64,000 nt of DNA from Candidatus Woesearchaeota archaeon. Lineage in GTDB: Archaea; Nanobdellota; Nanobdellia; Woesearchaeales; UBA583. Location of the stretch: the NCBI GenBank assembly GCA_965205335.1, contig OZ242164.1:1135750-1199749 (forward strand), written 5' to 3'. The first letter of the stretch is position 1. The number at the start of each line of letters is the position of its first letter. Under the pieces are notes generated by a model. It did no database searches. It saw only the letters and a list, made by a program, of their open reading frames with translations, and was not told where the DNA came from. Of this stretch, positions 21,455 through 60,040 are shown piece after piece. Both the position numbers and the translations under genes were made by a program.

Positions 21455-21582
21455 GGCTCTGTCCGAAAATTCAAGAGAACTTAAAATGTTATATAAATAA
21501 AGCAATTTTTGACAAATATTTTTTTTCTTTGATTGAATATAGTTAGCATAAATTTTGGAAAAAACAATTTTCGGACAGAGCC
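21455..21582. mobile_element. 128-bp MITE
   Basis: Perfect 17-bp TIR GGCTCTGTCCGAAAATT/AATTTTCGGACAGAGCC; 8-bp flanking duplication GTATTGAT. Confidence 0.9.
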
Positions 21583-21591
21583 GTATTGATT

Positions 21592-21678
21592 GACTTTGTT
21601 CAAAAAGTCTATATTTTGTGTTATAAATTTTTAAAATATACTATATATTGATATTTTAACTACTTTTTGAACAAAGCT
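21592..21678. mobile_element. 87-bp MITE (same family as 47223-47309)
   Basis: TIR GACTTTGTTCAAAAAGT/ACTTTTTGAACAAAGCT; 9-bp flanks GTATTGATT/ATATTGATT; interior aligns without gaps to the reverse complement of 47223-47309. Confidence 0.88.
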
Positions 21679-21721
21679 ATATTGATTATTCTTAAATTTA
21701 AATAAAAAAATAAATAAATAT

Positions 21722-22369
21722 TTATCTTGTGTAGTAGAAACCAGCGCAGAATATATGCTCATTAGATCTCTCACAATATGTTGATTTAAACGCTTCTTCA
21801 TTAGTTCTTGGAACTGTGAATATATATTCTATCCATTTTCCTTCTTCTGTAGTATTAGAAATTTCCTCTCCGTAACGATTACCTAATCTATCTACTAAAT
21901 GAGATATCTGATTATTCTCCAAATCTTTTCTGAAGGGATGAGCAACATTATTTCCTCCTTTAATCACAGATACATATATATCATCTTCTACATATACTCC
22001 ATCGCTAACATCTTTTAATGTTTTCTGAGGATCTTGGTTGAAATCTTCAATTGACCTTTTTACCAAAGCAACAGACTGCTTTGCCTCATATGATTTATAT
22101 CCTTCCCCATCTGCAATTCTCTTTGTTCTCTTATCTAAGTCCGAAGGTTCATTCATGTCATATTTCTTTATATGTTTATTGTTACAATATTCTTCCCTAT
22201 TCCATTTTCCTCTTTTGTCAGATATGCATTTCTTATCACCATACCCTCCTCCGTAACATTTCCCTTTCTTGTCATCATAATTATCGTGAACTGAACTAAA
22301 AACAAAAATCCCAAACAATAACACATGTATGACCACCAATACTACTATAATTTCTTTAAAGTGTTTCAT
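21722..22369 (-). CDS. membrane-anchored single Cache-domain protein
   Basis: N-terminal TM; D.YV.V....AHP....L...D..G..G...EGKW..Y.F..P....K.TYC...CAG.Y. Confidence 0.8.
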   Translation of the reverse strand: MKHFKEIIVVLVVIHVLLFGIFVFSSVHDNYDDKKGKCYGGGYGDKKCISDKRGKWNREEYCNNKHIKKYDMNEPSDLDKRTKRIADGEGYKSYEAKQSVALVKRSIEDFNQDPQKTLKDVSDGVYVEDDIYVSVIKGGNNVAHPFRKDLENNQISHLVDRLGNRYGEEISNTTEEGKWIEYIFTVPRTNEEAFKSTYCERSNEHIFCAGFYYTR

Positions 22370-22523
22370 TTTTATTTCCTAATATTACATAAGTTAAAAT
22401 ATAAGAATAACTTATAACAATTCAGGGCAACAACAAGTATTTAAACTTTTTGTTTATTGAGAATTAGATTTCAAAATACTCTTCTTCCTAATACAAATAA
22501 CAAAATTATATAAACAAAACTCT

Positions 22524-23900
22524 TTGAAAAATATTATGAACTTGAAAAACTTTGGTGTGGAAACAAATGAAGAAAAAAACAAACCAAAAGAAATAATTGA
22601 CTCTAAACTGAACCTTAACACCAAAGAAATTGCCCAAAAATTTAAACTCCAGAACACTGAAACATATCTCCCTTGGTTTCTTAAATATGAACTAAATGAT
22701 TACAAAGACCTAATAATAACATCTCAAATTCAGAAAATAATAGACTTCATTGAAACCTTTCAAACCAAAAACAAAAAAAAAGCAATCCTTCTATATGGTC
22801 CTGCCGGCTCTGGAAAAACAACAACACTAACTCTTTTTGGAAACCATTACAACTACGAAGTACTTGAACTGAACGCATCAGATAACAGAAATAAAAAATC
22901 AATTGAAGAAACCGTTGGAATTGCAGTAAAACAAAAATCCTTATTTGGAAAAAACAAACTAATACTGATAGATGAAGCAGACGGAGTTTCAGGCAGAGAT
23001 GACAGAGGAGGAATAAGTGCACTTGCAAAAATAATAAAAGAATCAAACTACCCAATAGCATTCACAGCAAACGATGGAGAATCCGAAAAAATAAAAGTCC
23101 TAAAAAAATTATGCATTTACATTGACTTTGAAAATCATTCACAAGAACTCCTTCTAAAAATCGGAATGAAAATCCTAAAAGCCGAAAATATAAAATACAA
23201 AAAGGAAGAACTAAAAGAATTCATCTTAAAAAGAAATGAGACAGACATTCGTGGTTTCATAAACGACTTACAGGCATTATCATACAATAACGAACTGAAT
23301 GTACAGGAAGACTTAGAACTAAGAGATTACAAAAAAAAAATAGAAACCCTTCTAAACAAAATCTATTTCTCATACCCAGAAGACTCATTTAAAAGCGGAT
23401 ATAACACAGATGTAAACTTAGACGAACTATTTCTTTATCTTGAAGAGAACACTCCAGATGTATACTCAAAAACTGCTTTAATCACTGCTCTAAACGAAAT
23501 ATCAAAAGCAGACATTTTCAGAGGCAGAATAAGAAAATGGCAGCATTGGAGATTTTTAGTATACGTAAACTTTTACCTAACATACGCAGTATCCAATGCA
23601 AAAGATGTTCCCAAAAAAATAGACAAATACAAAAGAAACAGAAGAATACTTTCCAAATGGATTTATGCAAACAAAGTAAACAGCCTCTCACAAAGAACCA
23701 AACTTCAAAAAAAAAACAAAGACCCGGAAAAACTAATAGAAAAACTCTCAAAACTATACAAACGCTCAGCAAAAAAAACAAGAGCGGAAGACTTATTTTA
23801 CTTTGCAAAAATATATCAAAACAATGAACAATTCCAAAAAGAAATGGACAAAACACTTCAAATAAACGATTCCGAAAAAAAAACATTACTTGAATTATGA
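22524..23900 (+). CDS. rfcL: replication factor C large subunit
   Basis: W..KY, LYGPAGSGKT, ELNASD.R, LIDEADG..G..DRGG, EEN.P, S.ADIF.GRI..WQ.WR. Confidence 0.93.
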   Translation: MKNIMNLKNFGVETNEEKNKPKEIIDSKLNLNTKEIAQKFKLQNTETYLPWFLKYELNDYKDLIITSQIQKIIDFIETFQTKNKKKAILLYGPAGSGKTTTLTLFGNHYNYEVLELNASDNRNKKSIEETVGIAVKQKSLFGKNKLILIDEADGVSGRDDRGGISALAKIIKESNYPIAFTANDGESEKIKVLKKLCIYIDFENHSQELLLKIGMKILKAENIKYKKEELKEFILKRNETDIRGFINDLQALSYNNELNVQEDLELRDYKKKIETLLNKIYFSYPEDSFKSGYNTDVNLDELFLYLEENTPDVYSKTALITALNEISKADIFRGRIRKWQHWRFLVYVNFYLTYAVSNAKDVPKKIDKYKRNRRILSKWIYANKVNSLSQRTKLQKKNKDPEKLIEKLSKLYKRSAKKTRAEDLFYFAKIYQNNEQFQKEMDKTLQINDSEKKTLLEL

Positions 23901-23945
23901 ATAATCAAACCTTAAATAACTCACACAAAAAAATTAAACACAGAT

Positions 23946-24482
23946 TTAATCTGCTTGATAATACCCAGCGCAGAGTATATGTTCCTCAACTTTCCTACAG
24001 TATGTTGATTTAGGCGCCTGTTTATCAGTCTCGGGAATAGTGAAAACATAATTTATCCATTTACCATCTTCTGTTGTAGTAACAATATCTTTCCCAAAAT
24101 AATAATCATTAACATCTTTCAGCTCTGTCACTTTAGTATTTTCTAAATCCTTCCTATATGGATGTCCTACAATATATTCCCCCTTAACTGCAAAAACATA
24201 CAAATCATTATAAATATAAGTATCACCCCTAATACCACTTAAAGTGCTCTCCTTGTCAATATTATAATCTCTAATTGCACTATCAATTAACTTCATTGCC
24301 AGCTTTACTCTCACAGAATAATCATCATAACTATCTCTCATATCATCTCCATAATAATCCATCTTTCTATAAGAATTCTTATCATGAGCAGAAATTACCA
24401 CAAAAGCCCCTAAAAGCAACACCACTAAAACTAACAACACTACAACTGTTTCTTTAAAATGTTTCATCTTGATTTTTCCCAA
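23946..24482 (-). CDS. membrane-anchored single Cache-domain protein (paralog of 21722-22369)
   Basis: MKHFKE.VV.L.V..LL.G start, HP.RKDLEN, TTE.GKWI.Y.FT.P, KSTYC, HI.CAG.Y. Confidence 0.8.
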   Translation of the reverse strand: MGKIKMKHFKETVVVLLVLVVLLLGAFVVISAHDKNSYRKMDYYGDDMRDSYDDYSVRVKLAMKLIDSAIRDYNIDKESTLSGIRGDTYIYNDLYVFAVKGEYIVGHPYRKDLENTKVTELKDVNDYYFGKDIVTTTEDGKWINYVFTIPETDKQAPKSTYCRKVEEHILCAGYYQAD

Positions 24483-24721
24483 TATTATTGCACTACATTA
24501 TTGTATACAAAAATATTATACAAATATCCATTCAACTTAATATTTAAACTTTTCCATTAAAAAATTATAATAACAGACGCAAAACAATTTTAATGTTTAC
24601 AACTAAATAAAGAAATAAAAAATACTCAATGAACTAGAACACATATTCACTAAAATTTTTGTTCTATTCCAATAATATCAAAATAAGTGCTAAAAATTTC
24701 AAGTGTAACTTAAACTACAAT

Positions 24722-24782
24722 TTTAATCATAGCATTTTTACTAAAAAAAATTATGCCTGAATTGCAATTTATTAAATCAGAA
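24722..24782 (+). repeat. dispersed intergenic repeat, copy 1 (copy 2 at 45564-45625)
   Basis: TTTAATCATAGCATTT and exact 27-mer CCTGAATTGCAATTTATTAAATCAGAA in both. Confidence 0.85.
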
Positions 24783-24883
24783 ACCCTGTCTCGATGCATT
24801 TTACTATCTTTAAATTTAGCAAAACTCTTATAAATTACAGGAATTGTTACAATGATATATAAAAAGAAGGAAAATCAAGCAAA

Positions 24884-27800
24884 ATGAACAGAAATAACAC
24901 CTTACACCACCCCCCCCCCCCTGAGAAAATGAAAGCACTATTAGTATTTGTTCTGACATTATTTGCTGCACTTTCAGTTATATCTCTTCTATCAGAAGGT
25001 TCTTATTCTGCAAACTTAAGTTCTCCCGGACCTAAGAATCTTACCGTTGAAATAACCGGCTCTGTTATTTTAGAATGGGATGCACCTGCCAATAACACTG
25101 AAACAATCACGGGGTATCAGATTCTACGCAGAACCCCCCTCAGCGGCGAAAGCACCTTACAGATATTAGTCAATAACACAGAAACAAACGAAACCGCATA
25201 CACAGACCTAAACGCTACAGAACCCCGAGAGTTTTATGTTTACAGAGTGAAAGCGTGGCGTAACCAAACTTTAAGCAGATGGTCAAATTATGATAGTGTG
25301 TATCTTCCGTCATCTTTTGGTGCACCGACTAATCTCACTGTAAATCTTGTGGATGGTTATGTAACTCTTAACTGGAATGCTCCCTTAGGCAATGCCCAAT
25401 CCATTACAGGATACGAAATTCTTCGCAGGAAACCTCTTAGTGGCGAGAGTACTTTAATGACCTTAGTCAATGACACAGAAATAAACGAAACATCTTATAT
25501 TGATTTAAACGCCACAGAACCAAGCGCGAGATATGTCTACCGTGTCAAGGCTTTGCGTAACGGTGAGAAGAGCCGTTGGTCAAACTACGACTACATAAAA
25601 CTTCCGGGGAATTATTCTGCACCGCCAACAGTTACATTCACTTTAATTAATTCTACTATTGAGGGTATTTTCATTAATAATTCAGATGTTTCAGAAGACT
25701 ATCAATTACCACTAAATTCTACTATAGATTATAACGATTATAACAATACCATTAAATTTTTGAGAAACATTAACATTAGTATTGAAGATGAAGAACTTGT
25801 TTACATGGAATCATCAGACAACATGCCTCCCTCTTTCGCAACTTTTGAAACCTTCATTTATAACCTTAATGAGAACGTAAATGCAAGTTTAGAGCCTATT
25901 GTAATTTACACTGCAACTGCAACTGATCCTGAGAATGATACCATAATGTACGATATGAGCCCCGTACCGGGTTTTGAAATTAACGAAACATCTGGTGTAG
26001 TTACGTATGTTGGGGAAGGTTTTGATTATGAAAATCTTTCTGAGAGGGAATTTCACCTCTTCATTAAACCATATGATATGTTTACAGTTTTACATGATAA
26101 TTCACCTTTTGTACTTATTAATATAGTAATTAATAACGTAAAGGAGGCTCATGAATTCAAGCAGGCTTTTTATGATTTTAATCTCAACGAAAATGCAGAT
26201 GGTAGCAGCACAACACCTGTTTTTGTTGGGAATGTAAGTTCAGCTGTTCCTGAGACCTATAATTTAACATATTTCATTACAGAAGGTAATACTAGCAAGT
26301 TTAGCGTTAATGAATCAACTGGCGAGGTATATTACATTGGCGGTGGGGAAGATTTTGAGAATGGACCTGCGTTTTATGATTTAACAATTTACGTTAGTGA
26401 CGGGTCGCTTAATTCTTCTGCTGATGTACGTGTTGAAGTTGTTGATGTGAATGAGGCTCCTGAATTTCCGAGAGGTAGTTATATCTCTGTTAGTATTAAT
26501 GAGAACATAAATGGAAGTTCAAATCATATATTTATTAATGATTACGCTGCAACTGATCCTGAGAACGATAATTTAACATATTTCATTACAGAAGGAGATA
26601 CATCAGGTAATACAAGTAAGTTTAGAGTTGATGAATCAAATGGAGAGGTATTTTACATTGGAAGCGGAGAGGATTATGAGGGCTTATTACTGAAACTTGG
26701 AGGAGCCCAGTATCTCCTTACAATCACAGTTAGTGATGGTGAATATAATGATTCTTATATTTTTACTTTAGAGATTAATGATGTGAATGAGGCTCCTGAG
26801 TTTTCTGAGAGTTCCTACATCTTCAATCTTAGTGAAAATAGAGATGGCAGCACAATGCCAATTTCTCTTGGATTTGTAAATGCAACTGATGATGATGGCA
26901 ATAGTTTAACGTTTATTATAAATGAACAAGAAGTATCAAACACGTTTGCCATTAATTCATCGACCGGTGAGATAACGTATATTGGCGGAGGGGAAGATTT
27001 TGAGAATGGACCAGCGTTTTATGAATTAACAATTTACGTTAGTGACGGGTCGCTTAATTCTTCTGCTGATGTACGTGTTGAAGTTGTTGATGTGAATGAA
27101 CGTCCTAAGTTCTCTGAGAGTTCATATAATTTCAGTCTTGATGAGAATGTGGGCGGCAGTCCTATGAATCCTGTTTTTATAGGGAATGTGACTGCGACTG
27201 ATGAAGATGCTGGCGATATTTTAAGATATACAATAATATTAAATGAAACGAATTATCAAAGTAACCATCCCTTTAGGCTTAATGAATTGACCGGTAAACT
27301 GGTTTACATTGGGAGTGGAGAGGACTATGAGAATAAATCAGAATATGAGTTCCAAGTGTCAGTGAAAGACAACGAGCTTTTTATAAGAAATGTCCCTGTT
27401 CGCATTGATATTAATGATGTAAACGATGCTCCTGAGTTTTCTGAGAGTTTATACACCTTCAATCTTAGTGAAAATAGAGATGGCAGCACAATGCCAATTT
27501 CTCTTGGATTTGTAAATGCAACTGATGATGATGGCAATAGTTTAACGTTTATTATAAATGAACAAGAAGTATCAAACACGTTTGCCATTAATTCATCGAC
27601 CGGTGAGATAACGTATATTGGCGGAGAGGAAAATTATGAAAACAGAATATCACACACGGTACTTGTGAACGTAAGTGATGACTCTCTTAGTGATAGTGCC
27701 GTAGTTTTCATTAGGATTTTGGACGTAAACGAGGCTCCTGAATTCAATCAGGGTTCATATAATTTCATTCTTAACGAAAACGTAAACGGCAGTTCAACGC

Positions 27801-30706
27801 CTTTTCCTGTTGGAACGGTAACTGCGACTGATCCTGAGGAGGATACTTTAACATACTCAATCACATCTGGCAATACAAACAACAAGTTTGACATTAATTC
27901 AACAACTGGTGAAATAACATATATTGGAAGTGGAGAAGACGGAAGCACGCCAGAATATCTCTTAAACATTAGCGTAACTGATACAGAATTTTCTGCCCAG
28001 ACCACTGTTCAGATTACCATTAACACAACAGTCAACAGTAACAACCCTCCCTCATTCGTGGAAATTTCTCGTGTAGCTGTACTCAGAGAGGACAAAGTTG
28101 GCTCTGTATTTCTTGGCGCAGTCTCTGCCAATGATGCTGATAACGATACCTTAACCTACTCCATTACAGAAGGTGATAAAAGTAAATTTAGAGTTGATAC
28201 TATTAATAATGTAGGTAATTTGTATTACATTGGAAGCGGAGAGGATTATGAGACAGGACCAAGAAGTTATAATTTAACAATTGAAGCGAGTGATGAGACA
28301 GACAGTGCGTCTCTTCTTTTCACGATTAATATCAGGGACGTAAACGAGGCTCCTGAATTCAATCAGGGTTCATATGATTTCATTCTTAACGAAAACACAA
28401 GCGGTAGCACAACGCCAGTTCCCATTGGAACAGTAACTGCAACTGATGAAGACGGTGACACCTTAGAATATTCCATCACCTCCGGTGCCACTAACAAATT
28501 CAACATTAGCTCCGAAAATGGTGCAATCACATACATTGGCAGTGGAGAAGATGGAAGCACGTCAGAATATTCCTTAAGCATTAACGTAACTGACACTGAA
28601 TTTTCTGACCAGACCACTGTTCAGATTACCATTAACACAACAATCAGTATAGTCAATCCTAACAATCCACCTGTATTCACTGAGATCTCTCATCTCTCTC
28701 TTGCAGAAAACCGAGACGGAAGAACAACTGCTGTTTATGTTGGAAATGTAACTGCAACCGACCAGGATAATGACACTTTAACATATTCCATTACTGAAGG
28801 CGACATAAATAAATTCAACATTGATTCATCAGTCGGGGAAATTACATACATTGGAAGCGGGGAAAATTACGAAAGCGACCCAAAACAATACAACCTGACA
28901 ATTCAGGTAACTGATAACTCATGGAATGTAGCTGGCAATATTACAGTTAGCATTGCTGACGCAAATGACGCTCCTGTCTTTATTGAGAACTCCTACACTT
29001 TCACTCTTAACATAAGTTCCACTTCTGTTTCTATTGGAACCGTGACTGCAACTGACGAAGACGGTGACACCTTGGGATACTCCATCACATCAGGCAATGC
29101 AGACAACAACTTTAATATTGACGAAACAACCGGTGATATAACATACACTGGCAGTGGAGAAGACGGAAGCACACCGCAATATCATTTAAACGTCAGAGTT
29201 CAGGACAATGATTCCGCTTCTGCTTCAACTGATGTTTATATTAATGTTGTTAATAATTCAGATGATATCATTCCTCCTCAACTCGGTCTGGGTACTTATG
29301 TAAATATCTGTGATCGAACATGGTGGGTTCGGAACAAAATACTGGACCTAACTCCTTCCTCTGATGCTTGTGCGAGTGTTGATTTATCTGAGCTGGCGGC
29401 AATCACTGAACTTGATTTTAACGGATACGGGAATGCTATTATGAAAGTAGGAGATTTTGATGATATGGTTGGATTGCGAAGATTGGATTTGAGTGATCTT
29501 GGTATCGGTCTTATATTAGATGATGACGGCAGTTATCTTGATGGTGTTACTGATAACCTTGGCGGACTTTTCAGAGACTTAACTAACCTTGAGTATTTGA
29601 GTTTGATGAATAATAATTTGCATCCACATCTTCCTGATGACTCATTTGCGAACATGGGTAATCTTCGTGAATTAGACATGCGCGGTTATTCGAGGAATCT
29701 TGAGGGTCGTGATGGTAGTTTGACTGATGGTAATTCACTGGGTGCTTGCTGGTCTTTAGAAGAAAAGGCTCAGTCTCACCCGCAATATCCATGGGATGCG
29801 CGAAAGAACTCACCTAACGCTTTCAAGCCATTAGTGAGTCTTGAGACTTATAACTATGAGTATGATTTCAACACAGAAAACATTTTCTCATTAGGGGAAG
29901 AAAGAAACATAATTTTTTCAGCCACAATGATTTCAAAGACGAGACCATATTCTGGTGTTTTAAACGCTACAGGGTATGGTTCGCTTTATCCTGGCAGTTC
30001 TTTGACTCAGACCAGTTTCACGTTTAAATCCAGAGAATACACTGTCAAAGAACTTCAACTGGTCAATGGAGATTTAGAACTAGAATTCAATAAAGATTTG
30101 ACGGACAGAGCACATTTTTCTCTGGTGCTAACTATTGGTCATAGAGAATTCAACTTCAGAGACTCATCATTTACTACTGGTAATGGGAACAGGAGGTTGA
30201 CAATTCAGAATGTGAATTTTTTGGATAGTCAGCCGGTTAACATCTCAATTGCAGCCACTGAAATCATTGACTATGAGTATGAACCAGAACCATATGCAAC
30301 AAACAATTACATCCAGCCGCCGGCATCTCCACAGAACATTGGAGTATCGGAGAATGAGAGGGTTTTCACTATCACATGGGATGCTCCAGAGAATGAGGAT
30401 GTTACGCATTATCGTATAGAAAGGGGTTTGAATTCATGGAAACATCAGGCTATGAAGAGGACGAGCGGACTTAGTTCCTCAGTCGGGTCTAATGTTCAGT
30501 GTGTTGATCACATGTCAGATTTCTATACTGATTTCAGCCACTTTGCCAACCACGTGGATACCGTCACCGCAAGCCAAAACAGTTACACTGACGACCTGTC
30601 AGGCAAACTACCATTAAGCTACAGTAGCATATGGTCGCTCAATTACCACGTATACGCAATCACTGAAGACGGTGAGAGCATGCCTGTGACAATAAAAGCA
30701 AGATAG
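24884..30706 (+). CDS. giant surface protein: signal, 2 FN3, ~11 cadherin-like repeats, LRR, FN3
   Basis: L.W.AP...ITGY.ILRR..YVYRVKA (FN3); DVNEAPEF..Y.F.L.EN..V.ATD.D..L.Y.I (cadherin); LRRLDLS/LEYLSL.NN (LRR); alternative start at 24929. Confidence 0.92.
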   Translation: MNRNNTLHHPPPPEKMKALLVFVLTLFAALSVISLLSEGSYSANLSSPGPKNLTVEITGSVILEWDAPANNTETITGYQILRRTPLSGESTLQILVNNTETNETAYTDLNATEPREFYVYRVKAWRNQTLSRWSNYDSVYLPSSFGAPTNLTVNLVDGYVTLNWNAPLGNAQSITGYEILRRKPLSGESTLMTLVNDTEINETSYIDLNATEPSARYVYRVKALRNGEKSRWSNYDYIKLPGNYSAPPTVTFTLINSTIEGIFINNSDVSEDYQLPLNSTIDYNDYNNTIKFLRNINISIEDEELVYMESSDNMPPSFATFETFIYNLNENVNASLEPIVIYTATATDPENDTIMYDMSPVPGFEINETSGVVTYVGEGFDYENLSEREFHLFIKPYDMFTVLHDNSPFVLINIVINNVKEAHEFKQAFYDFNLNENADGSSTTPVFVGNVSSAVPETYNLTYFITEGNTSKFSVNESTGEVYYIGGGEDFENGPAFYDLTIYVSDGSLNSSADVRVEVVDVNEAPEFPRGSYISVSINENINGSSNHIFINDYAATDPENDNLTYFITEGDTSGNTSKFRVDESNGEVFYIGSGEDYEGLLLKLGGAQYLLTITVSDGEYNDSYIFTLEINDVNEAPEFSESSYIFNLSENRDGSTMPISLGFVNATDDDGNSLTFIINEQEVSNTFAINSSTGEITYIGGGEDFENGPAFYELTIYVSDGSLNSSADVRVEVVDVNERPKFSESSYNFSLDENVGGSPMNPVFIGNVTATDEDAGDILRYTIILNETNYQSNHPFRLNELTGKLVYIGSGEDYENKSEYEFQVSVKDNELFIRNVPVRIDINDVNDAPEFSESLYTFNLSENRDGSTMPISLGFVNATDDDGNSLTFIINEQEVSNTFAINSSTGEITYIGGEENYENRISHTVLVNVSDDSLSDSAVVFIRILDVNEAPEFNQGSYNFILNENVNGSSTPFPVGTVTATDPEEDTLTYSITSGNTNNKFDINSTTGEITYIGSGEDGSTPEYLLNISVTDTEFSAQTTVQITINTTVNSNNPPSFVEISRVAVLREDKVGSVFLGAVSANDADNDTLTYSITEGDKSKFRVDTINNVGNLYYIGSGEDYETGPRSYNLTIEASDETDSASLLFTINIRDVNEAPEFNQGSYDFILNENTSGSTTPVPIGTVTATDEDGDTLEYSITSGATNKFNISSENGAITYIGSGEDGSTSEYSLSINVTDTEFSDQTTVQITINTTISIVNPNNPPVFTEISHLSLAENRDGRTTAVYVGNVTATDQDNDTLTYSITEGDINKFNIDSSVGEITYIGSGENYESDPKQYNLTIQVTDNSWNVAGNITVSIADANDAPVFIENSYTFTLNISSTSVSIGTVTATDEDGDTLGYSITSGNADNNFNIDETTGDITYTGSGEDGSTPQYHLNVRVQDNDSASASTDVYINVVNNSDDIIPPQLGLGTYVNICDRTWWVRNKILDLTPSSDACASVDLSELAAITELDFNGYGNAIMKVGDFDDMVGLRRLDLSDLGIGLILDDDGSYLDGVTDNLGGLFRDLTNLEYLSLMNNNLHPHLPDDSFANMGNLRELDMRGYSRNLEGRDGSLTDGNSLGACWSLEEKAQSHPQYPWDARKNSPNAFKPLVSLETYNYEYDFNTENIFSLGEERNIIFSATMISKTRPYSGVLNATGYGSLYPGSSLTQTSFTFKSREYTVKELQLVNGDLELEFNKDLTDRAHFSLVLTIGHREFNFRDSSFTTGNGNRRLTIQNVNFLDSQPVNISIAATEIIDYEYEPEPYATNNYIQPPASPQNIGVSENERVFTITWDAPENEDVTHYRIERGLNSWKHQAMKRTSGLSSSVGSNVQCVDHMSDFYTDFSHFANHVDTVTASQNSYTDDLSGKLPLSYSSIWSLNYHVYAITEDGESMPVTIKAR
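24910..24921 (+). repeat. C12 homopolymer at 5' end of surface-protein gene
   Basis: 12 consecutive C in AT-rich context between two in-frame ATGs. Confidence 0.9.
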
Positions 30707-31033
30707 TCATTTTATGACTTCTTTTTACTTTCCTATACCAGCATTTCAGACAAACATAAATTTTGCTGTTTAACCCGTTATCATAGCATTAACAAAATCA
30801 AACCAGAAAACCCGGAATAAACAGCAATGCTCCCCAACCTCTCTCATCAAAACACAAATGGTGAAACACTTTCGCTATCAGACAAAATCCGTTTTCCGAT
30901 AATGTGAAAAAAGTAAATTCCTTTATAGATGAATATATATTACGACTCTGTCCAGAAATTCAAATCAAAGATTACTAACTAAATCAAGATATAATTAATA
31001 GATTGTAAAGTTGGTAAATTTTTAGGAAAAAGA

Positions 31034-31465
31034 TTAATTATCAATGTAATTGCAGGTTCTCTCCGCTTGTTCCATTACTAATGTTAAGACATTTTGTTGT
31101 TGTTTTGGTGGGTATTTGTACTTTCTTAGTAATTTTTTGATTGTTAGTCTCATTGTGGCTCTTGCATTTTCTCTGATGTTCCAATCAACAGATTTGTTTT
31201 CTCTGATTGTAGTCACTAATTCTTTTGCAATATCTTTTAACACTTTTTCACTCATTACATCTCTGACTTCTTTTTTATTGCTTAATGCATCATAAAACGC
31301 AATTTCATCTTCGTTCAGGTTTAGTCCTTCACCTCTTTTGTGCTCATCTCTGAGTTTTTTTCCAAGTTTAATTAGTTCTTCTATTATTTTTGCAGTTTCA
31401 ATGGTTCTGTTTTGGTATTTGTTCTCATTTTTGCACTTAGTTTTAATTTTAGCTCTCAAAACCAT
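31034..31465 (-). pseudogene. hsdR: C-terminal fragment (DUF3387-like) of type I restriction subunit HsdR with unrelated N-terminus
   Basis: YQNR.IET..IIEELI...RGE.L.L..DEIAFYDAL...VDW..RE.ARA.MR..IK.LLRKY.YPP; no helicase/nuclease part. Confidence 0.85.
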
Positions 31466-31505
31466 AAGAAACTTCTGGATATGACCATTTATAAAGTTTT
31501 AAGTC

Positions 31506-31529
31506 ATCCCTCTAAAAATGACCAGAACC
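31506..31529. mobile_element. element end matching the right TIR of 59034-60040
   Basis: ATCCCTCTAAAAATGACCAGAACC vs ATCCCTCTCAAATTGAACAGAACC (21/24). Confidence 0.7.
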
Positions 31530-36842: not shown

Positions 36843-37799
36843 TTGAATTGTATGGAAAATTCTCAGGATATAGGGACATTTATATTAGGTTTAACAAAAC
36901 TTATAGAAAAACCATTTATGAAGGAAGTAAGATTTGATTACAAAGGTTTCTTTAAACTCCTATCAAAAAATAAAGAACTCCCATTATTGCAAGTTATTTT
37001 GAACCAGAATCAGATAAATTTTAACTCGGGATATAAAGTAGATTCAAATGAAACTCTTGAAAGAATATTTAAGCAGATACTTGTCAAACTCATAGAGAAA
37101 GATAGTATCACCTTAAAGAATGAAAATTTAGAGGACATAGTTTCAACATTATTTCAAAAAATAAAAACCCTAAACTTTGAGGACTTAATCAAACTCTTAT
37201 TATCTCGAGTAAACCTATCAAATTTTGAAAGATTAAAACTCTTCTTATTAAAGGATCTCAATCTGAGCGGTAAAATATCTTTAATAACACTTGTAGGAGC
37301 ATTTTCTTTTTCTTCTGGATGTGCAAATGATGCAACTCACACAGGATATAATAACACACCAAATACACATGTAGAAGAAGTCGTTGAAGAAAGCACTACT
37401 CATGGAGTGCTACAAGAACTAACACAATGGCAAAAGGAAATATGGGGAATTGGAGAAAAAAATGGAATGGATGAATGGTACTTTGAACAGATTCCTAATT
37501 TAACTGATAATCAGGCTTGGGCGTTTAAGGTAGGAGTAGAGAATAAGAAGGAAAGGTGGTACTTTGAATTAGTTCTTAAAAATCCTAATTTAACTGATTA
37601 TCAGGCTTTGGCATTTAATGCAGGAGTAGAGAGTAAGAAGGAGAGGTGGTACTTTGAACAAATTCCTAATTTAACTGATAATCAGGCTTGGGCATTTAAT
37701 AAGGGAGTAGAGAGTAAGAAGGAAAGGCGGTACTTTGAATTAGTTCTTGAAAATCCTAATTTAACTTCATCTCGTTTTATGGAATTAATGCAGGAGTAG
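36843..37799 (+). CDS. hypothetical protein with internal lipobox-like SSGC and C-terminal 27/30-aa tandem repeats
   Basis: WYFE..PNLTD.QA.AF..GVE.KKER repeats. Confidence 0.7.
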   Translation: MNCMENSQDIGTFILGLTKLIEKPFMKEVRFDYKGFFKLLSKNKELPLLQVILNQNQINFNSGYKVDSNETLERIFKQILVKLIEKDSITLKNENLEDIVSTLFQKIKTLNFEDLIKLLLSRVNLSNFERLKLFLLKDLNLSGKISLITLVGAFSFSSGCANDATHTGYNNTPNTHVEEVVEESTTHGVLQELTQWQKEIWGIGEKNGMDEWYFEQIPNLTDNQAWAFKVGVENKKERWYFELVLKNPNLTDYQALAFNAGVESKKERWYFEQIPNLTDNQAWAFNKGVESKKERRYFELVLENPNLTSSRFMELMQE

Positions 37800-37835
37800 A
37801 GAATAAGAAGGAAAGGTGGTACTTTGAATTAGTTC
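37476..37835 (+). repeat. tandem repeat, units of 81/90/81/89 bp plus a partial unit
   Basis: (T/C)GGTACTTTGAA at 37476, 37557, 37647, 37728, 37817. Confidence 0.9.
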
Positions 37836-46934: not shown

Positions 46935-47214
46935 GGTTCTGCAACAAAAAGGGAATTTTTGAAGGATGGGGGCAAATTGCCACCTTCCTTGATTTTCAGG
47001 CATTAAGATAATTTCATATAATAGTATAAAATTTAATTTTTAATGAAAGAAAATAAGAATTCCCTTAATTCCTCAAAAGGTTCAAGAAGCGATAGCAGAG
47101 AAAGTCGCAGATAGTCATAATCTAAGAAAACAAAGCAGACAACTTTTAGAAGAAGCAAAAACAGAAGTGAAAAGATAAATAAAAAAATAAAAGTCCCTAT
47201 TTTGTTACAGAAAC
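46935..47214. mobile_element. 280-bp TIR-bounded element containing an HsdS-like C-terminal fragment
   Basis: Ends GGTTCTGCAACAAAA-AGGGAATTTT vs rc GTTTCTGTAACAAAATAGGGACTTTT; degenerate 9-bp flanks AATTAATCT/AACTAATCA; 47053-47178 reads IRIPLIPQKVQEAIAEKVADSHNLRKQSRQLLEEAKTEVKR*. Confidence 0.7.
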
Positions 47215-47222: not shown

Positions 47223-47309
47223 GGCTTTGTACGAAAAGTAACTAAAATATCAATATGTAGTATATTTTAAAATATAATAACACAAGATATAGACTTTTCG
47301 TACAAAGCC
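47223..47309. mobile_element. 87-bp MITE
   Basis: Perfect 17-bp TIR GGCTTTGTACGAAAAGT/ACTTTTCGTACAAAGCC; perfect 9-bp TSD CAACTAATC. Confidence 0.93.
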
Positions 47310-49289: not shown

Positions 49290-49660
49290 ATCTGTTATAA
49301 TTTTTTGTAATTAATGTTATTGCGTGTGCAGACCTCCCCTTAACCTTAACTGACTTATTATGCATATTCTCTCTCTCAAAAGATAACTCATATGTTCTCA
49401 TATCTATTATCACCAATCACACTGAAAAATGCAGATCTCCTCCCAAGACATGCAACCCCATAAACAGTATTTGCCACGCTACCGCCTGCACATTCTTTAA
49501 TATCATGATTTGATAACTGTCTTAATATTTCCTCTGCCTTTCCTCACATGTTAAAGCCATAGTACCTTTCTTAATTTCAAGTTCCTCAAGAAAATAATCT
49601 TCAACTTCAACAAGCAAATCAAGAATAGGGAAACCAATCCCTAAAACATCAATATATTTA
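49290..49660 (-). pseudogene. decayed PfkB-family (adenosine kinase-like) gene, N-terminal part
   Basis: IDVLGIG.PILDLLVEVED.FLEEL.IKKG.M.L then, across frameshifts/stops, AGGSVANT..GVA.LG...AF...IGD and HAITLIT. Confidence 0.75.
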
Positions 49661-49711
49661 TGTAAAACTTCTTCTCTTCTATTGGACAATACTCTATCTT
49701 CCAATGTCTTA

Positions 49712-50884
49712 TCACCCGTCCTCATTTAAATATGACTTTAACTCATCTACTTTATCTAATCTCTCCCAGGTAAAATCAGGTTCATCACGTCCAAAATGTC
49801 CATATATTGCAGTCTTTGAGAAAATTGGTCTTCGCAGTTGCAAATGTTCAATAATTTTCCCTGGAGTTAATGGAAAAATCTCTACAATAGCATCCCTTAA
49901 TTTTGAGAGACTGACCTTCTCACTGCCAAAACAGTCTACATGAACAGATGTTGGCTCTGATACACCTATTGCATAAGATAACTGAACAAGACACCAGTCT
50001 GCAAGATTTGCCGCTACAATATTTTTTGCTATATACCTTCCCATATATGCCCCTGACCTATCAACTTTTGTAGGATCCTTACCTGAAAATGCTCCTCCTC
50101 CATGAGCACCATGCCCTCCGTATGTATCAACAATAATTTTTCTTCCTGTAAGCCCTGCATCTCCCTGAGGACCTCCAATGACAAATTTACCTGCTGGATT
50201 TATATGATACTTTGTATTCTCATCTAAAAGTTTCTGTGAAACAATAGGTTTAATCACATGCTCTAAAATATCAAATTTTAATTGACTCTGTGTTACATCC
50301 TCACTATGCTGAGTTGATACAACAATAGTATCAACCCTTCTAACCCTATTATTCTCATCATACTCAACAGTAACCTGAGTCTTTCCATCAGGTCTTAAAT
50401 ACGGAAGAGTTCCATTTTTTCTAACCTCTGATAACTTGTGAGACAACTTATGAGCGATATCAATTGTATAAGGCATATAGCTACTTGTCTCATTTGTTGC
50501 ATATCCAAACATAATTCCCTGATCCCCTGCTCCTATCTCCTTATGTTCCTTCTCATTTTCATCAACTCCCTGAGCAATATCTGGCGACTGCTGTTCTATT
50601 GCAACAAGCAAATTACAAGTCTTGTAATCAAATCCTTTCTCTGAATCATCATATCCAATCTCTTTAATCTTATCTCTGACAATTGACTGATAATCTAACT
50701 TGGCTTTTGTTGTAATCTCCCCAAAAAGCATAATCATTCCTGTCTTAGTAGCACACTCACATGCAACTCTTGAATTCGGGTCTTCCTTCAGACAGGCATC
50801 TAATATAGAATCAGAAACTTGATCGCAGATTTTATCCGGGTGTCCTTCTGTTACAGACTCAGATGTAAAATAATAATTAGCCAT
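49712..50884 (-). CDS. metK: S-adenosylmethionine synthetase, bacterial/eukaryotic type
   Basis: [55 protein letters not shown]. Confidence 0.98.
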
Positions 50885-51055
50885 AAAATATCCTCTAAGC
50901 ATTAGTATATAAAGAAGTGTATAATAATTATTCCTAAAAGAATAACCCTTCTTTCTTTATTATACATATATTAAGCATAATTTCTATATTATCACTATTT
51001 TTAAATGACTACAAAAACATAATACTTATAAATAAAGGAAAGTTGAATAATAATT

Positions 51056-52012
51056 ATGAATAGAAAAGGACTTGTAAGAGGTATTAGCATTTTGGAGGAT
51101 AGAATATTGTCTAATGGAAGAGAAGAAGTTTTAGATGATTATATAAGATTATTTAGTATTTCTAATTCAAAGGGAGGAGATTTTGCTAAAGTATTAATAA
51201 ATGCTCTTGCAGTAAGTGAGATATTAAATTCAGAAAAAATTGATGACAAGTATTATTACATAGGAGGTTATGCAACACTATTTCATATAGCTAATGCAAG
51301 AGGAGTAGAAGCTTTGACATCATGGAGGGGCTCATATGATTTAGACATAGTTACTGATAGTTCTAGGGTGAAAGATACCATAAGGGCAAACTTTGAAACT
51401 ACTGAAACTAACTCTTGTTCAGTACGTGGAAAAAAAAACTTGTCAATTATGGTTGATAATTCAGATATTCCTGTTAATGTTGATTTATACAACACACAAG
51501 AAAATAATTTTGAATGGCTTGATTTAGGAGAAAAAATAATGGAGAAATCTCAAATAATTGATGTTTTAGGAGTTAGGGTTAGAGTGCCTAAAGTTAAGTA
51601 TTTATTAAGAATGAAATTAGACGTGTCAAAAAAAAGAGACGGTCTTCCAAGAGATAGTGATAAAAGTGATATATTTAATCTATTGGGTGTTCTTGAAAAT
51701 TACGAAGGATTTTCTCACAAGTATTCAGGAATTGATGACAAGTTAAGATATATTAGTGATAGTGTTATTGAGAATAATGAAAGGAGGTACAAAGCGCTTT
51801 GTGACACACTATCATTATATAAAGGAGAAGATCTACCACATATACTTTCTCCGCCTTCTAATGCATTAATTCATCAAATACTTACTTTCCCTGATGTATT
51901 TATAGAAGAAGAAAGGGATTCATCTATGGAAGAATATAATGCAAACCAGTTTGCGGGTGTAAATATGGGTTCACTTGAAAGAAATCCATATGCGGAAAGA
52001 GTTATTCATTAA
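51056..52012 (+). CDS. putative nucleotidyltransferase (pol-beta/AbiEii-like)
   Basis: YY.IGGYA...R.SYDLDI, VDL, LL.MKL....R..D..DI..LL. Confidence 0.65.
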   Translation: MNRKGLVRGISILEDRILSNGREEVLDDYIRLFSISNSKGGDFAKVLINALAVSEILNSEKIDDKYYYIGGYATLFHIANARGVEALTSWRGSYDLDIVTDSSRVKDTIRANFETTETNSCSVRGKKNLSIMVDNSDIPVNVDLYNTQENNFEWLDLGEKIMEKSQIIDVLGVRVRVPKVKYLLRMKLDVSKKRDGLPRDSDKSDIFNLLGVLENYEGFSHKYSGIDDKLRYISDSVIENNERRYKALCDTLSLYKGEDLPHILSPPSNALIHQILTFPDVFIEEERDSSMEEYNANQFAGVNMGSLERNPYAERVIH

Positions 52013-52013
52013 A

Positions 52014-52748: not shown

Positions 52749-52800
52749 AGTTGTGAAATTTTATGTCCTCTTTAAACTCAAACTCAAATTTATAAATCTA

Positions 52801-55150: not shown

Positions 55151-55175
55151 TTCAAGAATTACTATTTTTAACCAA

Positions 55176-55550: not shown

Positions 55551-55720
55551 TGTTCAATTTCTCAACTTTAAAGTGCGAATTACAATATGGTTTTAGTTGC
55601 ATATAAACTTTCCTAATTACTATAAGTAATAAAGTAAATATTAAATTATTTAGTCAGAAACTTAATTAGTTTTATGTGACTTCAACTTCTTAATTTTAGA
55701 AAAATCTTATTGCATAAACA

Positions 55721-56878: not shown

Positions 56879-56996
56879 TAAATTACCTAATTCAAAATCA
56901 TTTATAAGTTCTTAGGCTTAGCTAATAAAGGCATATAAACTGCTATGAGAGTTTATAGCAAAAATTTAAATAGTTCAAAGTTTATTATGTATTAAA

Positions 56997-58025
56997 ATGA
57001 AAAATAATAAAGGTAAGAAGGATAAGAAAGTTAAAACTAATAAATCTCCTATTAAACGCTCCTACTTACATTTTTTATGGATAGTTGTACTTATTGGGTT
57101 TATATTATCTCTTGGGATGATTCCATCAGATAATTCAATATACACAAGATTACTAATAAGTGCTATGTTTATGGGAGTTTTTCTCTTGTTTGGAATTTGG
57201 GTTCTATTCTGGCTTAAACAATGCATAACTAAAAAACAACGAAGAATAGTTTGGATTGTTCTTGCAATAATGAGTCCTTTTCTCTTGTATGGTGTACTTA
57301 TAGGAGGTCTTCTTGGAATTATAGGAATATTTATTTTACTTTTTATTCCTGTTTTTGTTGTTCTTCCTCCACTTGTGTACATCTTGCGTAAAGAGTGGGT
57401 TAAATTTTTCATTTCTCTTATTATTGTTTTAGTTTTAGCTTTTATAATTGGGTTGAAATTTCAAAACTCAGACGAACAAATTGAATCACGTTATAATTTT
57501 TGTACCTCTCATTATAATGAGGAAGAAGCAGTATGGAATGAAGAGAATAAAAAATGTGAGATAACTATTAAAGGTGAAATACGACAGAGATTTGTAGGTT
57601 CACAAGTAAGTTTACCAATTGAAGGAAAACCAGTAGAACTCTATGCACAATATGACGAACCTAATCGCAAATATTCTTTAGAAGGGGAATTTTCTAGTAA
57701 TGGAAATTCAGGAAGGGTTGTAATGCAACTTTCACATAGAATTACAATTGTAGAGGAGAGGGAGAAATCTTATGTTTTCCTTGTTCCTTTTGATGTTGAT
57801 TACAAGCAAGGAGAAGATTTTTCACATGTTGGAGTCTTTTACTTTGATGGAGGTCTAAATATCATACATATTAAAACTTTAGAACTTTCTAATGCTAAGA
57901 GTATAGAAAATGTGCAAGTAGAACCTCTTGATTCAAAAATGAGAAAGTATAAAGTAATTGTATCCTACTTGGGAGAATCAAATGATTTAAAGAAGACTGC
58001 ATTCACTCTAACACTTAAAAATTAA
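56997..58025 (+). CDS. membrane protein with soluble C-terminal domain
   Basis: 5-6 N-terminal TM segments. Confidence 0.7.
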   Translation: MKNNKGKKDKKVKTNKSPIKRSYLHFLWIVVLIGFILSLGMIPSDNSIYTRLLISAMFMGVFLLFGIWVLFWLKQCITKKQRRIVWIVLAIMSPFLLYGVLIGGLLGIIGIFILLFIPVFVVLPPLVYILRKEWVKFFISLIIVLVLAFIIGLKFQNSDEQIESRYNFCTSHYNEEEAVWNEENKKCEITIKGEIRQRFVGSQVSLPIEGKPVELYAQYDEPNRKYSLEGEFSSNGNSGRVVMQLSHRITIVEEREKSYVFLVPFDVDYKQGEDFSHVGVFYFDGGLNIIHIKTLELSNAKSIENVQVEPLDSKMRKYKVIVSYLGESNDLKKTAFTLTLKN

Positions 58026-58055
58026 GTTAATCATACATTGTAACATTAAAGGGAG

Positions 58056-58893
58056 TTAATACTTAAATATTCCTCCTATATTTGTTGGGTCTGTAAATGT
58101 ACGGACTTGTGAATTTGTAGATTTTTCTATTTTTTTTGCTAATTCATCTAATTTTTCTCTGCTGGTTGCATTGAGATTAAATCCTGGAAATGGTTGATAC
58201 AACAAAGGGTATAAATGAACCTCACAGGGTTTTATTTCTTTAATTCTCTCTTCATAATCTCTCAAATTTTCCTCAGATAAATTACCGTCTTTTCCACCCA
58301 CAACAATAGTTTGAATTATCCTTTTTTTTTACAGGCGCATCTCTAAGTTCTCTGATTAAATCCCTAAATTTTACTCCCCTTGGTCTATTAAACCTCTCAA
58401 ATGTTTCTTCATTTCCAGCATCTAATTTCATAAAAACACAATCAAGCGGTGCCAAATTTTTATCTTTTAATCTTGTTCCATTAGTAAAGAGGGATGTTGA
58501 TATTCCAGATCTATAAGCATCTCTCATCTCTACTATTAAGTCAACAATTTCATCAAAATATGGACTTAAAGTGGGCTCTGTTGGTCCACTTAAAGTTATA
58601 GAGTCGTAGTGTTCATTAGAAGATAATCTTTCCACTAAGCCTTTTCTGATTTCTTCAGGAGTAGACATCCTAATTCTTCCTTTTTTTATTGATTCATCTA
58701 AACTTTCTGCTCCATATTGACAATAAATACAACTAAAATTGCAACCAAATCCTCCTTGAATCGGGTTGATACCTAAAGACAAACCTAATCTCCTTGAATT
58801 TATTGGTCCGTAAACTACACCTTGCTTTATTTCTTTAAAATATTTTCCAGCCTTTTGGGGTTTCCACCAGTCAGTTCTAATATTCCTATCCAT
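58056..58893 (-). pseudogene. radical SAM protein split by a 1-nt frameshift in an A9 run
   Basis: VYGP..SRRLG.SLGIN, CNFSCIYCQ.G, KLDAG....F...NRP; removing one A at 58322-58330 gives ..VKKRIIQTIVVGGKDGN.. joining both ORFs. Confidence 0.85.
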
Positions 58894-59033
58894 AAAAAGA
58901 GTAAGAAACGGATCTATAAAATAATTGTCTTCCCCTAAGGGGGTTGAAATAGAAAGAATTAAATATACAAAAATATACCAATAATTATGTATGAAACACT
59001 ATTGAAAGAAATTGGATTAACTAATGGAGAAAC

Positions 59034-60040
59034 GGCTCTGTTCAGTTTTGGAAGGATAGATAATATTTAAAAACTTTCCTCAACAGTGGTACTGGTTGTT
59101 TTTAGGGGTAGTTAATAATTAACTCCCAGAATATATCTTTATTGATAATTTATTTCATTAATTAATATCCCCTTTCTATATTCTCCTGAACTTATTATAT
59201 TCCCATCTTCATCATAAACTGTACCCTTACCATCTCCTCTTTTATATAATACTCCACTTCTTAATGTTCCTTCTATTACTTTCTGTATATTTCCATTCTC
59301 CCAGTAAACTTTTACTTTTCCTTCTCCTCTTAAAAATCCGTTTTTAAAAGTTCCCTCTTCTACTCTTTTAACATTTCCATTCTCATAGTAAAATGTTACT
59401 TTTCCTTCTCCTGTAAATTCTCCAAATGTATTTAATGCTACTTCTATTACTGACATTTTATTTCCATTCTTATAATAATACGTACCTGTTCCTTCTCCAC
59501 TTAATTTTTCAAACGCATAAAATTCTCTTTCTCCTACATACAATATATTTCCATTCTCATAGTATGTTGTTATTTTTACTCCTTTCATATAACCATCTTT
59601 AAATGTTCCTTCCATTACTTCCTTTATATTTCCATTTTCATAGTAATATGTTATATTTACTTCTCCTTCTTGTAATTCTCCAGACCTATTAAATATTCCA
59701 TATATTACTCTTTCAACATTTCCATAATCATCATAATATATTTTTTCTTTTTTTTCCTCATTTTGTTTGTTCTCCAAGTCTTCAGGTTGTTCTATGTTTC
59801 CATCTTCCTCATAAATCATTGCTTTCCCATCAGTAATATTAGAGCCTCTACTTTCAAAAACTTGTTCCCCATTTGTTTGTGGTTCACAACCTCCTAAAAA
59901 TAATAATCCCGTTACTCCAAATATTATTGTCAATATTATTTCTATTCTTTTAGTCTTTGTCACTTTGTTAATTAATAATGTTTTAGTCTTTTTATATTTT
60001 GTTATAAAAATTATATATCCCTCTCAAATTGAACAGAACC
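59034..60040. mobile_element. 1007-bp non-autonomous cargo element (no transposase)
   Basis: TIR GGCTCTGTTCAGTTTTGGAAGGATAGATAA vs rc GGTTCTGTTCAATTTGAGAGGGATATATAA (24/30); perfect 9-bp TSD TGGAGAAAC (59025-59033, 60041-60049). Confidence 0.93.
59139..59963 (-). CDS. MORN-variant/YwqK-like repeat lipoprotein (cargo)
   Basis: LLFLGG|C lipobox; G..T.YYENGN....EG.F..G repeats. Confidence 0.85.
   Translation of the reverse strand: MTKTKRIEIILTIIFGVTGLLFLGGCEPQTNGEQVFESRGSNITDGKAMIYEEDGNIEQPEDLENKQNEEKKEKIYYDDYGNVERVIYGIFNRSGELQEGEVNITYYYENGNIKEVMEGTFKDGYMKGVKITTYYENGNILYVGEREFYAFEKLSGEGTGTYYYKNGNKMSVIEVALNTFGEFTGEGKVTFYYENGNVKRVEEGTFKNGFLRGEGKVKVYWENGNIQKVIEGTLRSGVLYKRGDGKGTVYDEDGNIISSGEYRKGILINEINYQ

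Follow-up and report, generated by a model that had tools for sequence, protein, structure and literature searches.

The 64,000-nt stretch of a Candidatus Woesearchaeota genome analyzed here and referred to as the window (contig OZ242164.1, genome positions 1,135,750 to 1,199,749) contains several short elements with inverted ends and no transposase, among them a cassette at window positions 59034-60040 that carries a MORN-domain gene. These elements are likely to be the non-autonomous products of three insertion sequence (IS) lineages, which have only a GG(C/T)T(C/T)TG terminus in common, and there is good reason to regard the MORN cassette as a mobile insertion cassette (MIC) derived from one of the three, an IS6-like lineage. 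This level of confidence applies jointly to the best explanation as a whole, comprising the three lineages, the MORN cassette, a rearrangement scar at a truncated hsdR gene and an old insertion at 46935-47214. The genome consists of one contig of 1,199,749 bp with a G+C content of 30.9%, and the window forms its final 64 kb. Positions below are those of the window unless given as genome positions.

An initial annotation had placed all of the ends in a single family of terminal inverted repeat (TIR) elements that capture and move genes. The ends were present at every coordinate it had named, and the genome-wide scan for TIRs with target-site duplications (TSDs) that it had called for was carried out, with ends defined as G[GAT][CT]T[CT]TG, a TIR of at least 12/16, an exact flanking duplication of 7-10 bp and the reversed genome as the control. 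The scan returned 37 pairs of TIR and exact TSD in the genome and 0 in the reversed genome, and 41 versus 1 when 1 TSD mismatch was permitted. The elements were therefore considered real, and transposase-less TIR elements proved to be abundant in the genome. With a 17-nt pattern for the IS6-like ends, 29 ends were found, versus 0 in the control.

Each end in the window was compared, over 22 nt from its terminus, with the reference ends of three elements located elsewhere on the same chromosome:

IS-A: 1030 bp, IS5 family, with a 304-aa DDE transposase and an 8-bp TSD; three identical copies plus several diverged or broken ones
IS-B: 1664 bp, IS5 family, with a 104-aa SWIM open reading frame (ORF), a 282-aa DDE transposase and a 9-bp TSD; one copy
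IS6-like: 355-aa transposase with a SWIM/Zn-ribbon N terminus and a 9-bp TSD; two full-length genes plus five remnants

The IS-A and IS-B proteins matched DDE_Tnp_1 (PF01609 in Pfam, NF033579 IS5 in NCBIfam). The 355-aa protein matched PF13610 and NF033587 IS6, with 77 bits for Pfam DDE_Tnp_IS240 (cut-off 27) and 120.9 bits for NCBIfam transpos_IS6, slightly below the curated cut-off of 125. The IS6-like transposase genes keep all 61 alignment-invariant residues (for the first row of the alignment, by construction). The 21455/21582 and 30944 ends agreed with IS-A at 18-20/22 positions, the 47223/47309 ends with IS-B at 18-21/22, and the 31529, 59034, 59088 and 60040 ends with the IS6-like reference at 16-19/22, compared with 6-12/22 to IS-A and IS-B. 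Taken together, the window ends matched their own family at 15-21/22, and cross-family matches were mostly 6-15/22. Two pairs were not cleanly separated, namely, the 21592 pair (15-16/22 to IS-B, 12-15/22 to IS-A) and 46935/47214 (10-14/22 to any reference). The TSD was 8 bp in every family A element and 9 bp in the B and IS6-like elements. Because end sequences, TSD length (8 or 9 bp) and cognate transposases all separate them, three lineages replace the single end family of the initial annotation; for annotation in general, a common GGnTnTG terminus does not define a family.

The statement that no transposase lies in the window was borne out, as tblastn with the three transposases and genome searches with PF01609 and PF13610 found nothing above genome coordinate 1135749. 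The enzymes would act from outside it, as had been proposed, all three being encoded elsewhere on the chromosome. The prediction of an IS5- or IS1595-type transposase with these ends held for families A and B, which are IS5 family, and failed for the third lineage, which is IS6-like.

The clearest case of gene movement is the MORN cassette, for which the features were as follows:

59034..60040: cargo cassette, 1007 bp, no transposase; IS6-like ends; exact 9-bp TSD TGGAGAAAC at 59025-59033 and 60041-60049
59088..59111, plus strand: internal IS6-like end, GGTACTGGTTGTTTTTAGGGGTAG
59139..59963, minus strand: MORN cargo gene, 274 aa; Pfam MORN_2, E 6e-14; LFLGGC lipobox-like N terminus
58987..59033, plus strand: 5' piece of a TrmB-family gene, 16 codons
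60050..60758, plus strand: 3' piece of the TrmB-family gene, Pfam TrmB

The 274-aa MORN protein is the only sizeable ORF in the cassette, and its Pfam match and N terminus agree with the lipoprotein cargo described initially. The ends of the cassette agree with each other at 15/20 positions, with the IS6-like reference at 16-19/22 and with IS-A or IS-B at 9-12/22. Removal by script of the unit and one copy of the repeat restored a 251-aa TrmB-family ORF, which aligned over 1-250/250 with a related-genome homologue (40% identity, E 1e-74) and gave end-to-end matches in 9 related loci. Since the TSD is exact and the rejoined ORF is full length against its homologues, 59034-60040 is a genuine transposition of a gene-carrying, transposase-less unit into a regulator gene, and to this extent the proposal of gene movement by such units was correct.

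A sister copy of the cassette at genome 664673-665487 has other flanks and a TSD of 8/9; the two are 77-87% identical and are therefore not recent. The 59088 end, internal in the window copy, equals the outer end of the sister copy, and the TSD-matching end of the window copy lies 54 bp outward of it. The enzyme can therefore evidently use alternative ends, and this is a simple route to changing what the ends enclose. Empty sites were sought in assembled contigs only, from three runs of one sample in one study, the sample being possibly the source of the genome. Both junctions of the MORN cassette were bridged by independent short-read contigs, and a joint 46865->47133 was seen at depth 2 and side 22, below the reliability guide.

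Further units with the same end type were detected outside the window:

genome 183756-187521: 3766-bp cargo unit with IS6-like ends; protein of 885 aa without a known family; exact 9-bp TSD
genome 1044577-1045492: cargo unit with IS6-like ends, 916 bp; 82-aa ORF and retropepsin-like (aspartyl-protease-like) ORF; TSD 8/9
transposase gene at genome 37660-38724: intact IS6-like transposon, 4568 bp; Vsr, 238-aa ORF, C5-methylase and 355-aa transposase; 9-bp TSD

The first two and the sister copy at 664673-665487 are the additional transposase-less cargo units with TSDs that the initial annotation had led one to expect. A 92% copy of the first 1.2 kb of 183756-187521, end included, lies at 511-512 kb. 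The two full-length IS6-like transposase genes are 400 kb apart; homology between them starts at the ATG and there is no internal left end, hence no compact IS. The second of them, at genome 441014-442765, is 77% identical and runs into a 583-aa ORF; upstream of it are an ORF for a GIY-YIG nuclease and an IS6-like left end at 439307. In the non-coding gap between the methylase and transposase genes of the intact transposon, a 150-bp piece (genome 37274-37422) is 88% identical to part of the hsdS gene at 332 kb. A 44-bp unit at genome 827526-827569 consists of two facing IS6-like ends only and adjoins half of an hsdS ORF (828090-828539) and two more IS6-like ends.

The lineage extends to other archaea. 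A total of 155 relatives of the 355-aa transposase were found at an E value of at most 0.001, the named ones as "IS6 family transposase" or "DDE-type integrase/transposase/recombinase," in Candidatus Nanoarchaeia, Woesearchaeota, DPANN group archaeon, Bathyarchaeia and Methanomethylicaceae. Among 40 related genomes, the IS6-like transposase was represented by fragments or distant matches only, in 4 genomes; most of the 40 assemblies are fragmented, and repeats are frequently absent from such assemblies. A single-protein scan of contigs found nothing; an alignment-based scan gave 80 loci, in named archaeal metagenome-assembled genomes and a few labelled bacterial. Of these loci, 69 were examined, the 11 left out being short or partial matches. 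A unit was defined by a right end at most 300 bp from the gene, a left end at most 6 kb upstream, a TIR of at least 14/20 and an exact 8- or 9-bp TSD, and was found in 21 of the 69 loci versus 1 of 69 in the reversed control. The TSD was 9 bp in 20 of the 21, and unit lengths ranged from 1803 to 7084 bp; all 21 therefore hold more than a transposase gene. The ends in the present genome read GGTTCTGTT... and start with GG, and those of the relatives start with GG or GA.

By Pfam search of the passenger ORFs, DNA methyltransferase and/or restriction enzyme domains were present in 14/21 units, or 15/22 when the transposon of this genome is counted. The restriction-modification (R-M) types comprised PLD-type, AlwI, ApaLI, GmrSD/HNH with EcoRI-methylase, type III Res/Mod, and type IIG or type I-like with S domains. 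Of the remaining 7/21, one carried RelA_SpoT, one a proteasome-like protein, and five had cargo without a family. The cargo-bearing state is probably the normal one for the IS6-like lineage, and its cargo is most often an R-M system.

The hsdR tail reported initially as a mobile unit at 30944-31529 proved to be of a different nature. The features in this segment were as follows:

30944..30965, plus strand: solo family A-type end, 19/22 to the IS-A right end; in a duplicated segment, not the TIR partner of 31529
31034..31465, minus strand: ORF for an hsdR C-terminal fragment, 143 aa; Pfam T1RH-like_C 204-327/329, E 4e-49
31426..31529, minus strand: terminal segment, 104 bp; solo IS6-like end GGTTCTGGTCATTTTTAGAGGG read inward from 31529

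The Pfam match upheld the identity of the ORF as an hsdR tail. The 31529 end matches IS6-like right ends at 17-19/22, IS-A at 9/22 and IS-B at 8/22, and no TSD partner for it was found within 15 kb. The flanks of 30944-31529 agree at 2/9 positions, that is, there is no TSD. Positions 30981-31420 are 95% identical to genome 347882-348318, where the hsdR gene is itself a 280-aa C-terminal fragment, and the same family A-type end stands in the same position 3' of the fragment's stop codon at genome 347864. The homology ends at ~31425, and the first ~13 codons of the 143-aa ORF are unrelated DNA adjoining the IS6-like end. Given ends from two families, flanks that agree at 2/9 and 95% identity to another broken hsdR locus, the hsdR tail is taken to be a pseudogene fragment, duplicated and truncated next to a solo IS6-like end. 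It would thus be a rearrangement scar of the sort that IS-mediated deletion or rearrangement should leave, and not a mobile element. A truncated protein could conceivably be made from the ORF, which begins in the DNA adjoining the IS6-like end. The 4.8-kb hsdM/Schlafen/hsdR' island at genome 347864-352677, which has inverted GG..CTG ends, was considered as a cargo unit and rejected, there being no TSD. At 619 kb, a 989-aa open frame gave a weaker T1RH-like_C match. Directly to the left of the scar, 24884-30706 encodes a protein of 1940 aa, in which eight cadherin domains and several fn3/LRR domains were recognised.

A second segment for which a gene fragment had been reported was the following:

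46935..47214: 280-bp element, single copy; ~26-nt imperfect TIRs GGTTCTGCAACAAAAAGGG and GTTTCTGTAACAAAATAGGG; 9-bp TSD at 7/9

By our own arithmetic, a 7/9 TSD in register has p ~0.008 at 0.33 match per site. Assignment of the 46935/47214 ends is weak, at 10-14/22 to IS6-like and 11-13/22 to IS-A. Within the element, 46951-47058 (108 bp) is 78.7% identical to genome 625164-625271, upstream of a Bro-N gene. The "hsdS tail" attributed to it is unproven: the peptide has a PLPP-EQ-IA-like motif with E 0.08 against the genome's four own HsdS proteins, and in Pfam it gave no Methylase_S match, the only hit being NrtR_WHD at E 0.098. The element is probably an old insertion of the IS6-like kind with fragment-like DNA.

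The smallest elements of the window were assigned to families A and B as MITEs (transposable elements of the miniature inverted-repeat type):

21455..21582: family A MITE, 128 bp; TIR GGCTCTGTCCGAAAAT 16/16; exact 8-bp TSD GTATTGAT at 21447-21454 and 21583-21590
21592..21678: degenerate family B-like MITE, 87 bp; TSD 8/9; ends 15-16/22 to IS-B
47223..47309: family B MITE, 87 bp; TIR GGCTTTGTACGAAAAG; exact 9-bp TSD CAACTAATC; ends 18-21/22 to IS-B

Genome-wide, 39 near-full-length copies of the family A MITE and 18 partial ones were counted; the ends of the window copy are 18-20/22 identical to those of the 1030-bp IS-A. Family B is represented by 6 copies of a 117-bp form, five of them identical, and ~4 of the 87-bp form; the copy at 21592..21678 is 86.9% identical to 47224-47307, inverted. 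No ORF of at least 50 aa is present in the 128-, 117- or 87-bp MITEs. On all three counts used for MITEs, families A and B are ordinary MITEs of IS5-family ISs. By the ISfinder groupings, A may resemble the ISH1 group (8-bp TSD) and B the IS903 group (9-bp TSD, GGC ends). The IS5-type family carries cargo too: a 3498-bp unit at genome 173445-176942, bounded by family A ends and flanked by an exact 8-bp TSD, encodes an IS-A transposase and a beta-propeller protein of 735 aa (Pfam Beta_propel, E 1e-162). The view that such elements lacked description in DPANN archaea needs amending for MITEs, as a 2024 census, in the portion available, ranks DPANN genomes as the richest in MITEs among archaea and includes a Woesearchaea genome (PMC11602168).

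Elements also tend to lie against one another. Of the exact-TSD elements, 5/39 abut the outer end of another element (within the TSD length + 3 bp), compared with 0.15% expected for random sites. The left TSD of the 21592 B-like MITE holds the family A MITE; the 47223 B MITE sits at the terminus of the 280-bp element, with the last base of that element duplicated; and at 664.5-665.6 kb two A MITEs and the MORN cassette copy are surrounded by four occurrences of the 8-mer GTGTTCAA.

In the mechanism that we propose for the MORN cassette, it would be moved in trans by an IS6-like transposase, the product of the gene at genome 37660-38724 or of that at 441 kb. Such an enzyme would act on any two inward-facing cognate ends, by which cargo could be gained, and a cargo-bearing transposon may give rise to cassettes if its transposase is lost or if other ends are used. 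By analogy with bacterial IS6 members, replicative or deletion events might account for solo ends and for truncated neighbours, the hsdR tail among them.

Several observations weigh against derivation of the cassette from a normally cargo-bearing IS6-like lineage by such mobilisation. The ends of the cassette match those of the intact transposon at 13-17/22, so recognition is assumed, and IS-B also makes 9-bp TSDs. The second transposase copy at 441 kb has no recognisable right end. Most of the 29 IS6-like ends are solo, and a search over 15 kb added no new TSD partner; decay or rearrangement has therefore affected a large part of these ends. A search of 19 other genomes of the genus did not recover the MORN cassette, although 5 of them gave short matches (24-91 bases, 74-96% identity), and no contig joint skipping it was seen in the three runs, the contigs being silent on mobility. 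Among the relatives, 48/69 loci had no TIR+TSD unit, many on contigs cut short. Some of the 14 R-M units are kin with common cargo (three with GmrSD and EcoRI-methylase, two with Res and methylase), and the number of independent R-M cases is therefore smaller.

Solo ends, MORN copies of 77-87% identity that are not recent, the lack of an empty site in the contigs and the hsdR tail would fit static cassettes, with the IS6-like ends as relics and the duplicates produced by segmental duplication or recombination between relic ends. This is unlikely, as recombination makes no fixed-length target duplications, and an exact 9-bp duplication surrounds both the 1007-bp unit, where it splits an otherwise intact 251-aa gene, and the 3766-bp unit, with 0-1 pairs in the reversed control. 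Mobilisation of the cassettes by the IS-B transposase instead of the IS6-like one would also give 9-bp TSDs; IS-B has been active recently, judging by the five identical 117-bp MITEs, and B MITEs adjoin IS6-like ends. It is nevertheless quite improbable, since the cassette ends match IS-B at 6-11/22 versus 13-19/22 to IS6-like and a 9-bp TSD likewise flanks the IS6-like transposon, here and in 20/21 relatives.

The idea behind the initial annotation, one TIR family served by one IS5- or IS1595-type transposase with Pack-MULE-like capture of fragments, could draw on the GG(C/T)T(C/T)TG common to all ends, on two small units with gene fragments (the hsdR tail and the 280-bp fragment of a Bro-N locus) and on a 9-bp TSD equal to that of Mutator-like elements (MULEs). 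We regard it as very improbable. The ends form three groups with cross-family identities of mostly 6-15/22, there are two TSD lengths, and the three cognate transposases belong to two superfamily branches; the hsdR unit lacks a TSD and joins an end of one family to an end of another, and complete genes make up the best-supported cargo. Among matches of Mutator/IS256 type, none reached its cut-off, the only one being NF033543 IS256 at 16.8 bits versus 150, on the IS6-like protein. Chance matching in DNA of 30.9% G+C, in which single heptamers occur 60-200 times, has a negligible probability in view of the controls (37 vs 0, 41 vs 1, 29 vs 0) and of multi-copy families that are 85-100% identical.

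The genomes of DPANN archaea are tiny, the organisms are host dependent, and their gain and loss of genes is poorly understood. A transposase clade that carries R-M modules, with transposase-less cassettes that have ends of the same type, would be a route for exchange of defence genes and, provided that the lipoprotein and the 885-aa protein carried by the cassettes are surface exposed, of cell surface genes as well. It is possible, though short of probable, that GGTTCTGTT-type ends mark an undescribed archaeal IS6-like lineage (9-bp TSD, SWIM/Zn-ribbon, normally cargo-bearing) in which about two-thirds of the delimited copies carry a complete R-M system, which spawns surface-gene cassettes and which would be a main vehicle for moving defence and surface genes between Woesearchaeota-type DPANN archaea, in whose small genomes such systems are otherwise few. 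As far as the available part of a 2026 survey goes, R-M systems are under-represented in DPANN (PMC12988326).

Other features were noted in passing. RadA of the window is 84-85% identical to proteins named Candidatus Woesearchaeota or Nanoarchaeota, and an archaeal ORF like RNA polymerase subunit N was spotted by eye in the genome; the DPANN origin assumed in the initial annotation is thereby upheld. At 19025-19849, a tyrosine recombinase (Phage_integrase, E 5e-47) has as its neighbours, at 20-24.5 kb, an AAA ATPase and paralogous ORFs with Cache domains; this group may be an integrated element. A 318-aa ORF at 36843-37799 with tandem repeats (37476-37835) scored 28.4 bits for Pfam Binary_toxB_3, exactly at the cut-off, and probably represents a surface protein's repeat domain. 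The S-adenosylmethionine synthetase gene at 49712-50902 stands between the two arms (49652-49704 and 51092-51144) of a 53-nt inverted repeat with 87% complementarity.

Compared with known systems, families A and B show no essential difference from IS5-derived MITEs: they are 87-128 bp, non-coding and multicopy, with the TIRs and TSD length of an IS in the same genome. MICs are exemplified by MIC231 of Bacillus cereus, which is moved in trans by the IS231 transposase. With MICs, 59034-60040 and three further units of the genome have in common IS-type ends, passengers, a TSD of the cognate length and no transposase; they differ in residing in a Woesearchaeota-type archaeon, in their IS6-like instead of IS4-type ends, in the heterogeneity of the ends and in the use, once, of an alternative outer end. 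Pack-MULEs of plants have a Mutator-type transposase, long (>100 bp) TIRs, a 9-bp TSD and host-derived cargo. Non-autonomous TIR elements, 9-bp TSDs and host-derived sequence are found here as well, with IS5- and IS6-type transposases, TIRs of 16-26 nt and whole genes as the well-supported cargo. The fragment-bearing units are the hsdR segment, which lacks a TSD and has mixed ends, and the 280-bp single copy with a TSD of 7/9. A Pack-MULE-type system, as first suggested, thus finds no support, given the want of a Mutator-type transposase and of long TIRs and the whole-gene cargo.

The R-M cargo has its closest counterpart in bacteria, where transposon-like R-M units were described by Furuta, Abe and Kobayashi in 2010; in the parts of that paper available, no archaeal case survived the screen (PMC2853133). 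R-M genes, imperfect inverted repeats and a short TSD are common to both, and mobilisation in trans is discussed there. The units in that account are bacterial, have an 8-bp TSD in Xanthomonas oryzae and mostly lack a linked transposase, whereas a defined archaeal transposase clade is linked here. Thaumarchaeal IS-like transposons consist of 1-2 genes according to the accessible text of Krupovic et al. (PMC6563490). Two 2026 surveys of archaeal ISs and defence contain no statement on IS6 passengers in the portions at hand (PMC13343696, with 0 occurrences of "passenger"; PMC12988326). No description of archaeal IS6-like transposons with R-M cargo or of MICs in DPANN was found in the literature searched, the text of which was partial; supplementary tables may list such elements.

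Relative to the strict IS6/IS26 family, the GG ends are present, and the transposase scores above the cut-off for DDE_Tnp_IS240 but slightly below that for transpos_IS6; the TSD is 9 bp here and in 20/21 relatives instead of 8 bp, and units of 1803-7084 bp with passengers take the place of a compact, ~0.8-kb single-ORF element. Available sections of the 2021 IS6 review give ISDsp3 as the sole family member with a passenger gene (PMC7986276). Like this transporter IS (tIS), the present elements enclose a transposase and passenger(s) in one pair of inverted repeats, and they differ in that passengers are the rule (21/21 units >1.8 kb), the cargo is frequently a complete R-M system, the TSD is 9 bp and not 8 bp, and the N terminus is of the SWIM/Zn-ribbon type. 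As in IS26-type pseudo-compound transposons, an IS6-family enzyme would shuffle neighbouring genes, and MITE insertions beside ends are enriched; here the short ends are inverted and flanked by a TSD, and no cargo is enclosed by a pair of full IS copies in direct repeat. Going by the same sections of the review, replicative, cointegrate-type events of the IS6 family should leave solo ends and mismatched flanks (PMC7986276). The elements depart from three textbook traits of IS6, namely, the 8-bp TSD, the compact size and the lack of passengers, and this speaks for setting archaeal "IS6" elements apart, as has been proposed in print: Harmer and Hall, in the text available, state that the archaeal transposases are at most 25% identical to the bacterial ones and without experimental data, and propose that they leave the family (PMC6807381). 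Overall, the elements of the window and their relatives in this genome are of the MITE, MIC and tIS kinds and are not an analogue of Pack-MULEs.

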